Source: Candidatus Dormiibacterota bacterium (GTDB lineage: Bacteria; Chloroflexota; Dormibacteria; Aeolococcales; Aeolococcaceae). Taken from it: a stretch of DNA of 64,000 bases. Under the pieces are notes generated by a model. That model searched no databases. It was not told where the DNA came from and saw nothing but the letters and a program-made list of their open reading frames with translations. Every line of letters starts with the position of its first letter. Position 1 is the stretch's first letter. The DNA lies in the NCBI GenBank assembly GCA_963709585.1, contig CAVPXI010000014.1, positions 256,001 through 320,000 on the forward strand, read 5' to 3'. Positions 56,361-58,521 of the stretch are shown here, one piece after another. Made by a program: the position numbers and the translations under genes.

Positions 56361-56573
56361 CTACTCGTTCTCGTACTTGAACGAGACGTTGAGGCGGGTG
56401 CGGAACCGCGCGACCTTGCCGTTCTCGACGGTCAGATCGAGCTTGACCACCTCGGCGATGCGCAGGTCGCGCAACGATGAGGATGCGGTCTCGATGGCGA
56501 TCTGGGCTGCCTTCTCCCAGGACTCGGCGCTGGTCCCGACGAGCTCGGTGACGCGGTAGACGCTCTCAGCCAT
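56361..56573 (-). CDS. Dodecin family flavin-binding protein
   Basis: SVYRVTELVGTSAESWEKAA...LRDLRIAEV...VSFKY. Confidence 0.9.
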   Translation of the reverse strand: MAESVYRVTELVGTSAESWEKAAQIAIETASSSLRDLRIAEVVKLDLTVENGKVARFRTRLNVSFKYENE

Positions 56574-56678
56574 GCAGGTACCCCCTGGACAATGGACGCA
56601 GGAGCGCCATTCTGACCGCCGAGGCGCGCGACCGGTCGCGCGGTACAAGTGACCTAGACATCCCACGGGGATAAGTCG

Positions 56679-57893
56679 TCAAGCAGCAGCCTGACGGATG
56701 GGTGGCCAGGCCACGCGTTCGGAGTAGCAGCAGCGATGTTCGAGACAGCCGTGGAGGATGCCGACGAGACGGTTGGCGAGGGCACGCAGCGCCTGATGGT
56801 GGGTGTGGCCGCGGGCACGATGAGCCGCGTAATAGGCACGTGCGCCCGCTGAATGCGTCAGGGTGCAGAAGGCCCACAGGTAGAGCGCATCGGCGAGACG
56901 GCGGTTGCGCGTCACACGCGCCAGGACCACCGACCGAGTGCCTGAGGCACGAGTGATCGGAGCGCTGCCGGCATAGCAGCGTCGCGCTCTGGCATTCTCA
57001 TAGCGGGTCCGGTCGTCACCGAACTCCGCCAAGACCCGGGCGCCGAGGATCACACCAAGTCCGGGCAGACTGCGCAGGATCTCGGCGTCCGGGTGATCTT
57101 CAAAAGCCTCGGCAAGCTCGGCCTCGAGGGTGGCGATCTGCGCATTGAACTCGCTGATCACGCGCACCATGGCCAGCACCGAGCTGCCATACGCCCTGGC
57201 GAGCAGCGGCGGCGGCGCCAGTTGCGGCGCACGCAGTGCGCGTTGCAAGGCCGCAGCGCGGGGGGCGATCCCGCGACGGCGCCCGCTACGCGCCAGCACC
57301 ACCCGGAGCTGGTTGAGAGTCAGCCGCCGTCCTTGCTCGGGCGTGGGTGCTCGGCTGAGCAACGCCAGTGCGTCCCGACCGGCCAACTCCGTGCCCAGCG
57401 CGTCCAGTGCAGCGGGATAGAACTCCCGCAGCGCGCTGCGCAGCTGATTGGCATGCCGGACGCGCGCCCACACCAACGTCTGATGGGTGCGGGCGAGCAC
57501 TTTCAGACTCTCCGCGAGCTCGCTGTCGCCCGCCATCGGGCGATGGTTCTGGCGATCGGTGCGGACCAACTCGGCCAACACCTTGGCGTCGCCCGGATCC
57601 GACTTCGCCCGCGACACGGTATGGCGATCGCGGTAGCGACTCACCGCGAACGGATTCAGGGCATACACCTGATACCCGGTGGCCACCAACCCTTGCACCA
57701 GCAGACCGCGGTCGGTTTCGATGCCAACCACCACGGTCTCGGGTTTCGAGGTGTGCGCCCCGACCAGCTCATGGATGCGTGCCAGGCCTTCGATCCCATC
57801 GGGGACGCGCGCCTTGTCGAGACGGGCTCCTGCCTCGTCAAGGAGACACACGTCGTGGTGCGCCTCCGCCCAATCGATGCCGAGGTAGACCAT
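56679..57893 (-). CDS. IS110 recombinase (RuvC-like DEDD plus Tnp20 domain)
   Basis: LGIDWA, GIETD, KSDPGDA, SLPGLG, YAGSAPITRASG (catalytic Ser region); AGGAGG RBS before the ATG at 57893. Confidence 0.95.
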   Translation of the reverse strand: MVYLGIDWAEAHHDVCLLDEAGARLDKARVPDGIEGLARIHELVGAHTSKPETVVVGIETDRGLLVQGLVATGYQVYALNPFAVSRYRDRHTVSRAKSDPGDAKVLAELVRTDRQNHRPMAGDSELAESLKVLARTHQTLVWARVRHANQLRSALREFYPAALDALGTELAGRDALALLSRAPTPEQGRRLTLNQLRVVLARSGRRRGIAPRAAALQRALRAPQLAPPPLLARAYGSSVLAMVRVISEFNAQIATLEAELAEAFEDHPDAEILRSLPGLGVILGARVLAEFGDDRTRYENARARRCYAGSAPITRASGTRSVVLARVTRNRRLADALYLWAFCTLTHSAGARAYYAAHRARGHTHHQALRALANRLVGILHGCLEHRCCYSERVAWPPIRQAAA

Positions 57894-57914
57894 GTGGCGC
57901 TCCTCCTGTGTGAA

Positions 57915-58108
57915 CGCGACAACGAGCCGGAGGAGCATCGCGGCGCCCTAATGGATCAGTGCTCGGGGCACGACATCCCACCGGCCGTCTTGTCTCCTCG
58001 CCAACCGTCGGGGCCACGGTCTAGGCCTGGAGCTCAGCGCTCTGAGTCGAAGAGTGGTCACCCGCCGGCGGCTCGGGAGCAGCTTGCTCCTCAGCCGAGC
58101 TGCTCGCC
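57915..58108 (-). ncRNA. Predicted IS110 bridge RNA (5' hairpin, target-binding loop, donor-binding loop)
   Basis: GTGGGATGTC (57981-57972) is identical to the element right end; CCATTAG (57954-57948) is the reverse complement of the left end; GACTC and GGCCTAG match the flanking target. Boundaries approximate. Confidence 0.85.
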
Positions 58109-58128
58109 ACCCATTAGAGTCTGGAGCC

Positions 58129-58521
58129 ATGCGAACGCTCATACGAACCGTCGGCCGCCTCTGCATCTCCGGGATCTTCGTTTACTCCGGCTACGGGATG
58201 ATCAAGAATTCGGAGCGCTACGCAAAGCTGGCGGCGGCTGCGCTGCCGGTGCCCGAGGACCCGATGATCGCCAGAGCCCAGGGCGCGACCATGATGGTGG
58301 CCGGTTCCACCCTCGCCCTCGGCATCCTGCCGAAAACGTCTGCCCGACTCCTCGCGCTCACATTGATCCCCAACACATTCGTCGGCCATCCGTTCTGGAA
58401 AGCCCAGAAACCCGAGGATCGGCGCAGTCAGCTCGTCCACTTCCTGAAGAACGCGGGGCTCTTCGGTGGCCTGCTCTATGTGGGCGCGGACAAGCGGACC
58501 GAGCCCCGTCTCGAGGACTGA
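58129..58521 (+). CDS. DoxX family membrane protein
   Basis: GRLCISGIFVYSG, GHPFWK, HFLKNAGLFGGLL. Confidence 0.88.
   Translation: MRTLIRTVGRLCISGIFVYSGYGMIKNSERYAKLAAAALPVPEDPMIARAQGATMMVAGSTLALGILPKTSARLLALTLIPNTFVGHPFWKAQKPEDRRSQLVHFLKNAGLFGGLLYVGADKRTEPRLED

Follow-up and report, generated by a model that had tools for sequence, protein, structure and literature searches.

An IS110-group insertion sequence with a predicted bridge RNA in its left end, from a high-GC soil bacterium

How does a small insertion sequence come to sit where it sits, and can the answer be read from the part of it that is not translated? This question is raised by an IS110-group element in a 64,000-nucleotide stretch of DNA (the window) from a Candidatus Dormiibacterota genome (assembly GCA_963709585.1, contig CAVPXI010000014.1, positions 256,001 to 320,000), in whose noncoding end a first-pass annotation, made from the letters alone, had read a bridge RNA with four guides for the element's own junction and its insertion site. 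The reference for such a reading is IS621 of Escherichia coli, an element of the IS110 group that works with a bridge recombinase and a bridge RNA (Durrant et al. 2024, PMC11208160; Hiraizumi et al. 2024, PMC11208158; PDB 8wt6; statements on both papers refer throughout to excerpts of their text). From the copies of the element in this genome, from relatives that lack it and from homologs in other genomes, we conclude with high confidence that it is a complete IS110-group insertion sequence of the IS621 group, probably still mobile, with a bridge RNA of about 180 nt in its left end. Positions are those of the window, and sequences are given on the minus strand unless stated otherwise.

Borders, copies and empty site

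The element lies between divergent DoxX-family and dodecin genes. Its left border reads GACT/CT-AATGG (58121-58111) and its right border GTGGGATGT-CT/AGGTC (56666-56651), where the slash separates element and host DNA. There are no terminal inverted repeats, and the core dinucleotide CT stands on either side of the element and once in the empty site. The noncoding ends are of very different length, with 224 nt on the left (58117-57894) and 23 nt on the right (56678-56656).

Three copies of the element, with identities of 100, 99.93 and 99.86%, are present at different loci of the genome, which is a draft of 3.52 Mb in 24 contigs with 88.8% completeness. All three end at exactly the same borders, carry 0-2 changes over 1462 bp and have every reading frame open. 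Their flanks read ..CCAGACT/CT..CT/AGGTCAC, ..AGTGACT/CT..CT/AGGCTCG and ..GTTGACT/CT..CT/AGGGCGC, and GACT-CT-AGG is what the three independent insertion sites have in common. This shared sequence is the core-adjacent part of the left target guide of the element followed by the complement of its right target guide. The second copy (contig C13) differs by one substitution, at element position 681, and the third (genome G000, contig C7, 92761-94223, locus L003) by one substitution and an extra A within the left target guide, at about element position 72.

The site without the element was found in relatives. In all 18 assessable relatives from the same genus, the DoxX-dodecin spacer is free of the element; a single CT stands at the site in 16 of them and TT in the other two, and the target 9-mer GACTCTAGG is intact in 15. 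Both CT as the core and an empty allele reading GTGACC-TAGA- had been predicted in the first-pass annotation. The closest relative (genome G008, locus L031) reads ..CAAGACT-CT-AGGTCACTCGG.. at this place, that is, GTGACC-TAGA-GTCT on the plus strand, just as predicted, and the core is borne out by the flanks of 3/3 copies and by the relatives with a single CT. In addition, a contig from soil run X12 joins 56654 to 58115 and thereby skips exactly the element (1460 bases, with four ambiguous letters, TAGA, and a shorter side of 91 letters). Because several of its flank positions differ from the window, we assign this contig to another strain, a relative of the one studied here. Other skips among the contigs (56574 to 58115, 56574 to 58169 and the like) were set aside, having short sides of 20-36 letters and coming from more distant relatives. 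The borders and the empty site are directly supported by these comparisons.

Guides and their covariation with flanking DNA

The hairpin, the guides, the stems and TTGACG, from which the bridge RNA had initially been read, were each located on the minus strand where they had been placed, and the pairings proposed for the guides held in full. The left donor guide GTGGGATGTC is identical to the right end over 10/10 positions and the right donor guide is an exact 7-nt reverse complement of the left end (Table 1). The left target guide CTTCGACTC matches GACT and the C of the core, with two U-G wobbles and two mismatches further out, and the right target guide pairs over 7 nt with one G-T wobble. 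Within the window, GTGGGATGTC occurs at exactly two places, the guide and the right end, when 0.17 would be expected (two or more were seen in 2 of 100 shuffles). We take the guide matches to exceed chance because three independent sites read GACT-CT-AGG and because guides and flanks covary in homologs, not because of any single fold.

An alignment of homologs supplied, per locus, the guide columns, the 10 bases preceding CTAATGG, the best downstream match to the left donor guide and the 10 bases following it. Out of 89 sequences that entered, 11 had no hairpin anchor by regular expression (L049, L054, L055, L067, L068, L074, L088, L110, L114, L118 and L125), one had too little upstream DNA (L090, judging from the anchor position) and three duplicated other sequences exactly. 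Of the 74 aligned rows, three (L093, L099 and L107) had gaps at the left end and were left out of the table, four had a non-canonical left end (L011, L012, L079 and L120), and 15 of the remaining 71 had no usable right end or 10-nt flank.

On the left side, 67 guide/flank pairs with 52 distinct guides gave 260/335 matches in the last five flank positions, as compared to a mean of 109.8 and a maximum of 142 in shuffles, none of which (0/5000) reached the observed value. From position -8 to -1 of the flank, identity to the locus's own guide was 0.34, 0.37, 0.55, 0.57, 0.76, 0.82, 0.84 and 0.90, and identity to the guides of other loci was 0.29, 0.24, 0.26, 0.27, 0.30, 0.29, 0.27 and 0.46. In the nine-base left guide, the signal of the outer four bases is weak or absent (identity 0.34-0.57, background 0.24-0.29). 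On the right side, 55 pairs with 37 distinct guides gave 239/275 matches in the first five flank positions (shuffles: mean 118.8, maximum 149, 0/5000 reaching 239/275). Here the values from +1 to +8 were 1.00, 0.95, 0.82, 0.87, 0.71, 0.22, 0.16 and 0.31 for the own guide, and 0.58, 0.51, 0.30, 0.36, 0.31, 0.22, 0.18 and 0.32 for other guides. Judging from these profiles, the target read in this clade would comprise about 5+2+5 bases. The natural diversity of the guides, 52 on the left and 37 on the right, also suggests that the recombinase may be reprogrammable.

The same counts bear on a different explanation, in which no RNA guide exists: the internal copies of the end sequences, GTGGGATGTC and CCATTAG, would be sub-terminal repeats bound by protein, and the leader a translational or antisense regulator of the recombinase. 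That the donor motifs are nearly invariant across the clade, with donor covariation on few positions, and that the leader lies directly upstream of the ribosome-binding site would both suit this explanation. However, two segments of the loops vary in step with the host flanks at 67 and 55 independent insertions, with 52 and 37 different guides among them, and the target is likewise tracked by the two bases that follow the right donor guide, so that we give it hardly any credence and read these segments as guides.

The donor side is nearly constant in the clade. Guides with GGGATGT are accompanied by GGGAT(G/A)T ends, those with GGGGTGT by GGGGT(G/A)T ends, position 6 of the left donor guide covaries with the right end, and in two loci (L053 and L078) the right donor guide CTATTAG pairs with a left end reading CTAATAG. 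Donor covariation accordingly rests on few variable positions, which do match; together with the target counts, the covariation of guides with target and donor DNA in homologs, on which the bridge-RNA reading had been staked, was found for all four guides.

We further examined the two bases that follow each right guide, in view of the handshake guides described for IS621, which are dinucleotides that pair with the partner DNA after strand exchange (PMC11208158). For the donor loop, 76% of 67 loci show complementarity between the first base of this dinucleotide and target position -1 (54% when shuffled), and 43% show complementarity of the dinucleotide to position -2 (23% when shuffled), with 0/2000 shuffles reaching the value of either position. 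In the target loop, it is AT in 12/12 elements whose right end stops in AT. The two bases 3' of each right guide thus behave as candidate handshake guides.

Some of the loci are of interest in their own right. L120 (Acidimicrobiaceae) carries at about 429-700 a second, partial donor-loop hairpin with a right donor guide, situated 183 nt upstream of the complete copy and joined at ..GCTGCTGGGG.., which looks like a rearrangement of donor loop and left end. In L011 (G043), CTAATGG stands about 650 nt upstream of the donor loop, suggesting a long or interrupted left end, and in the pair L012/L025 (G036), L012 lacks a recognisable right end and its gene contains a gap; L011 and L012, both more distant homologs, were excluded from the counts as their ends could not be fixed. 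L068 lies on a contig labelled as a Nitrosotalea (archaeal) metagenome bin and has a 63%-identical recombinase and the same end motifs, which would mean either a mis-binned bacterial contig or transfer between domains.

Conserved left-end fold and recombinase

Does the left end also have the structure of a bridge RNA? In the consensus obtained from nine left ends of the genus, a 5' stem-loop is accompanied by two loops, the first closed by a long stem and the second by GAGGAG/CTCCTC. We then searched with the protein, which yielded 80 further loci, aligned 53 distinct left ends, computed a fold on these 53 sequences with the guide columns forced unpaired and counted pairs on the resulting structure. 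It has 42 pairs in 7 helices, in which 93.1% of cells are paired and 30/42 pairs show changes on both sides. When the 3' partners were slid by 1-3 columns, these values fell to 35-47% and 14-19 pairs, a comparison that somewhat favours the proposed fold, the structure having been taken from the same alignment, so that the compensatory counts are the stronger argument. In none of the fold measures did any of 500 shuffles match the observed value.

Helix by helix, the five inner pairs of the 5' stem-loop (helix 1) all show compensatory changes and are 86% paired, the closing helix 2 has six pairs, five of them compensatory, at 88.6% paired, helix 3 has 12/14 compensatory pairs at 96.8% paired, and helix 4 has 3/4 compensatory pairs. 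Helices 5-7 belong to the donor-binding loop. These changes indicate that a two-loop RNA fold is conserved in the left end, with a basal helix that closes both loops together. In an unconstrained RNAalifold run on the 53 sequences, CTAATGG, the donor end of the DNA, was folded onto the right donor guide; we reject this pairing as an artefact of including the first bases of the element, because these lie at or upstream of the proposed -10 box. No Rfam 15 family matched 57894-58117 at E values up to 1, a search of which it is not known whether the library includes a bridge RNA model. Summed contig depth over the donor loop (57941-58007) reached 288 in run X5 and 333 in run X12, with about 4-8 and 92-121 in the neighbouring bins, an excess from which it follows that many related soil-metagenome elements share this near-invariant stretch.

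The gene downstream of this leader encodes a recombinase that matches PF01548 DEDD_Tnp_IS110 (1e-37) and PF02371 Transposase_20 (2.9e-15) in Pfam, and NF033542, 'IS110 family RNA-guided transposase', in NCBIfam (204 bits against a cut-off of 140, residues 3-387). Routine annotation would already give it the name of an RNA-guided transposase through NF033542, a model that names the protein only, the RNA, guides and ends being outside it. Plain phmmer with the recombinase against the PDB gave no IS110-family match. A profile of 17 homologs was needed because the recombinase has diverged far from IS621, and it found the ISCro4 transposase (9t56, 6.3e-15) and IS621 (8wt6, 1.3e-14). D7, E59, D99, D102, S317 and G318 are invariant in the 17 homologs. 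In the profile alignment, D7, D99, D102 and S317 face D13, D104, D107 and S243 of the IS621 chain, whose numbering is offset by two from the native one, so that these are native D11, D102, D105 and S241; S317-G318 align to chain S243-G244, or native S241-G242. The catalytic residues of IS621 are D11, D102, D105 and S241-G242 (Hiraizumi et al. 2024, PMC11208158). Both a RuvC-like DEDD domain and a Tnp domain with the catalytic serine are therefore present, and E59 would be the catalytic glutamate, as its invariance and motif suggest. The recombinase had been called intact and its lineage high in GC; open reading frames and a full set of the invariant residues agree with the former, and a genome of 66.8% GC with the latter.

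Two further matches concern the same gene. Residues 131-368 give a sub-threshold match to the NCBIfam model of TIGR-Tas RNA-guided endonucleases (31.7 bits against a cut-off of 100). Antisense to the gene, Rfam RF02464 (Ms_AS-4, 'Actinobacteria sRNA') matches 56988-57069 on the plus strand (54.8 bits, gathering score 50), opposite codons 275-302, which form the invariant SLPGLG..FGDD part of the Tnp domain; this family may simply have captured conserved IS110 coding sequence.

Table 1 Features of the element and its flanks (positions in the window)
Feature	Position	Strand	Basis or relation
Whole IS110-group element, 1462 bp including the CT core at both ends	56656..58117	minus	copies, relatives, soil contig
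CT core dinucleotide, left copy	58116..58117	minus	motif check, genome copies, relatives
CT core dinucleotide, right copy	56656..56657	minus	motif check, genome copies, relatives
Left target half GACT (host flank)	58118..58121	minus	same in 3/3 copies; equals core-adjacent left target guide positions
Right target half AGG (host flank)	56653..56655	minus	same in 3/3 copies; complementary to right target guide
Left-end donor half AATGG	58111..58115	minus	
Right-end donor half GTGGGATGT	56658..56666	minus	
5' stem-loop, 8 bp in this copy, GAGCAGCT (58105-58098) with AGCTGCTC (58084-58077)	58077..58105	minus	
Closing helix, 5' half CCGAGCC, encloses both binding loops	58070..58076	minus	
Closing helix, 3' half GGCTCG; probable minimum 3' extent of the RNA	57923..57928	minus	
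Target-binding loop: 14-pair stem, left guide, GAGC/GCTC mini-hairpin (58042-58030), right guide	58003..58069	minus	
Left target guide CTTCGACTC	58044..58052	minus	covaries with flank positions -6 to -1
Right target guide GGCCTAG	58021..58027	minus	covaries with flank positions +1 to +5
Candidate handshake dinucleotide AC of target loop	58019..58020	minus	complementary to GT just left of the core in the right end
Donor-binding loop: GAGGAG/CTCCTC stem, CGGC/GCCG stem, left guide, GTGC/GCAC hairpin, right guide	57930..57999	minus	helices 5-7
Donor-loop stem GAGGAG with CTCCTC	57999-57994 with 57935-57930	minus	
Left donor guide GTGGGATGTC	57972..57981	minus	10/10 identity to right end 56666-56657
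Donor-loop hairpin GTGC with GCAC	57971-57968 with 57962-57959	minus	invariant in 53/53 sequences
Right donor guide CCATTAG	57948..57954	minus	exact reverse complement of CTAATGG at 58117-58111
Candidate handshake dinucleotide GG of donor loop	57946..57947	minus	faces CT just left of the target core, one wobble
Ribosome-binding site AGGAGGA of recombinase gene	57906-57900	minus	
Recombinase gene, 404 aa	56679..57893	minus	Pfam, NCBIfam
TTGACG, candidate -35 box of circle-junction promoter; contains recombinase stop codon TGA	56677..56682	minus	

As for the neighbouring genes, the left end of the element lies 11 nt upstream of the DoxX start codon, where the GGAG ribosome-binding site has been kept and the former upstream region cut off (58111-58131). 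The recombinase gene is directed toward the dodecin gene, 83 nt downstream (56573-56655).

Mobility, relation to IS621 and significance

Taken by analogy with IS621, these parts suggest the following course of events. The element would be excised as a circle in which CT links the right end to the left end. The bridge RNA, of about 180 nt and transcribed from the left end, would consist of the 5' stem-loop, a loop for binding the target and one for binding the donor, the basal helix closing the two loops together. Its donor loop would pair with the circle junction, GTGGGATGTC with the bottom strand on the left and CCATTAG with the top strand on the right, and its target loop with about 12 nt of host DNA around a central GACT-CT-AGG. 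The DEDD/serine recombinase, as a tetramer, would then exchange strands at the CT core, leaving CT on both sides of the inserted element.

A promoter formed at the circle junction had also been proposed, with TTGACG 18 nt upstream of TCTAAT. Part of this proposal stood: with the ends joined computationally, TTGACG, 18 nt and then TCTAAT follow one another in the junction of this copy, and TTGAC precedes TCTAAT by 17 or 18 nt in 42/42 distinct junctions. The -10 half fared less well: TCTAAT has no canonical A at position 2, and donor recognition accounts for its invariance just as well. A junction promoter is plausible by analogy with IS621 (PMC11208160).

Is the element still active? Three near-identical copies argue for recent movement. 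The occupancy of target sites points the same way and, with such small numbers, is suggestive only: no free GACTCTAGG was found on either strand of the 3.52-Mb assembly, all three such sites being occupied, and none of the 79 one-mismatch sites that keep the core is occupied (given only three copies). CTAG itself is scarce, with only 2438 occurrences on both strands of this 66.8% GC genome.

Several points weigh against a complete, mobile element guided by RNA. At the completeness of this draft, the numbers of copies and sites are minimum values. The shuffle counts overstate significance because related loci are not independent of one another, and the donor test is partly circular, since the right ends of homologs were located via the left donor guide; the target tests are not circular. 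The fold of the left end as a single sequence is not better than that of shuffles (z = -0.74), and the minimum-energy structure of this GC-rich end is without the two loops. A single-sequence fold is uninformative here, and the case therefore rests on the other copies and the homologs. In the recombinase, HMMER sets the glutamate of IS621 and ISCro4 opposite G57, two columns from the invariant E59. At the junction, the -10 candidate TCTAAT has C instead of A at position 2 and fails the rule of the promoter scan. An A at this position is needed in sigma-70 and actinobacterial promoters. A promoter and terminator scan of the integrated element returned no sigma-70-like promoter and no terminator. 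None of the sequencing runs listed as containing the stretch is on record as RNA, and among the contigs of four runs, which are poor material for seeing one, there was no back-joining contig or circle junction; we count neither absence for or against activity.

These last results could nonetheless be expected if the element were a true member of IS110 with a bridge RNA whose copies are now silent or defective, for instance through an RNA left untranscribed in this host or an impaired recombinase, the matches recording past and not present activity. The 1-nt insertion in the left target guide of the third copy, the integrated element without a promoter-like site and the genome without a free perfect target would be in keeping with this, as would the lack of RNA-type runs and of a circle junction. 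Against it stand the 0-2 changes over 1462 bp among three copies with open frames, and the presence of every catalytic residue that is invariant in 17 homologs. Moreover, weak expression of the bridge RNA from integrated IS621 is reported as the normal state (PMC13626964). Altogether, we regard silent or defective copies as improbable and prefer an element that is probably still mobile.

How closely does the element follow IS621? The two share a two-domain DEDD and serine recombinase, an RNA encoded in a long left end upstream of the gene, and the order 5' stem-loop, target loop, donor loop. Within each loop, the order of stem, left guide, small stem-loop and right guide is that described for the IS621 bridge RNA (PMC11208158, section 7). 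In both, each of the four pairings takes in the CT core, the bottom strand is read by left guides and the top strand by right guides, handshake dinucleotides stand 3' of the right guides, and a -35 box, here a candidate one, faces the junction from the right end. Judged from sequence, every IS110-group (IS621-type) feature that could be tested was found here, the promoter apart, and the IS621-type architecture of RNA-guided recombination that had been recognised initially is supported by the loop layout, guide covariation, domains and empty allele.

There are also differences. The protein has 404 aa as opposed to 326 aa in IS621, with the extra length between the two domains, and the host is a high-GC (66.8%) soil bacterium. 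The covarying target is of about 5+2+5 nt here, whereas IS621 is described with 11-14 nt and a nine-base left guide, and the right donor guide pairs over 7 contiguous nt, whereas nine RNA bases of IS621 pair discontiguously with seven DNA bases (both in PMC11208160). A covarying basal helix joins the two loops here, of which the excerpted descriptions of IS621 make no mention, a comparison made by description only. Among solved structures, the best match to the clade profile is the ISCro4 transposase (PDB 9t56, E = 6.3e-15), and the two align at the first aspartate, at the D..D pair and at the SG motif; the relationship is one at profile level only. The IS1111 group of the IS110 family shares the recombinase family and the RNA-guided principle; in its members, a long right end carries the bridge or seek RNA, and inverted repeats of 7-17 bp lie sub-terminally (PMC11208160). 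Membership of that group is ruled out here, the right noncoding end being 23 nt and the RNA lying in the 224-nt left end.

In mechanism, architecture and even the covariation approach, nothing departs from what is already known from Durrant et al. 2024, and the element is ordinary for its family. That study reported covariation for targets in 5,511 pairs and for donors in 2,201, and predicted a bridge RNA in 85.7% of IS110-group elements, thousands in all (PMC11208160); excision has been treated in later work (PMC13626964; bioRxiv 10.64898/2026.08.31.748434). A search of one literature library returned no paper coupling IS110 with 'Dormibacter', and the IS110 element of this particular lineage seems undescribed.

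Whether the clade goes beyond an ordinary variant depends on its shared traits. Its recombinases are of 396-404 aa and come from contigs labelled Dormibacterota, Actinomycetota, Acidobacteria and Chloroflexi, the nearest contigs being labelled Candidatus Dormibacterota, and its donor junction, GTGGG(A/G)TGT-CT-AATGG, is almost fixed. With these traits, the extra helix joining the loops and the short target, the clade might form a structurally distinct sub-type of bridge system, a notion that we hold to be rather doubtful. If the closing helix were functional and absent from IS621-like RNAs, the way in which the two loops are held relative to each other would be changed, and the clade would also offer an orthogonal bridge recombinase adapted to high GC.

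Regardless, the element is a clean natural case, readable in full, of RNA-guided recombination in an uncultured soil lineage of high GC. Its clade amounts to a compact natural data set, in which some 50 target guides are set on a nearly constant scaffold and donor. Such a set defines the target positions that would actually be read, about 5+2+5, and suggests a scaffold helix that goes unmentioned in the excerpted descriptions of IS621.

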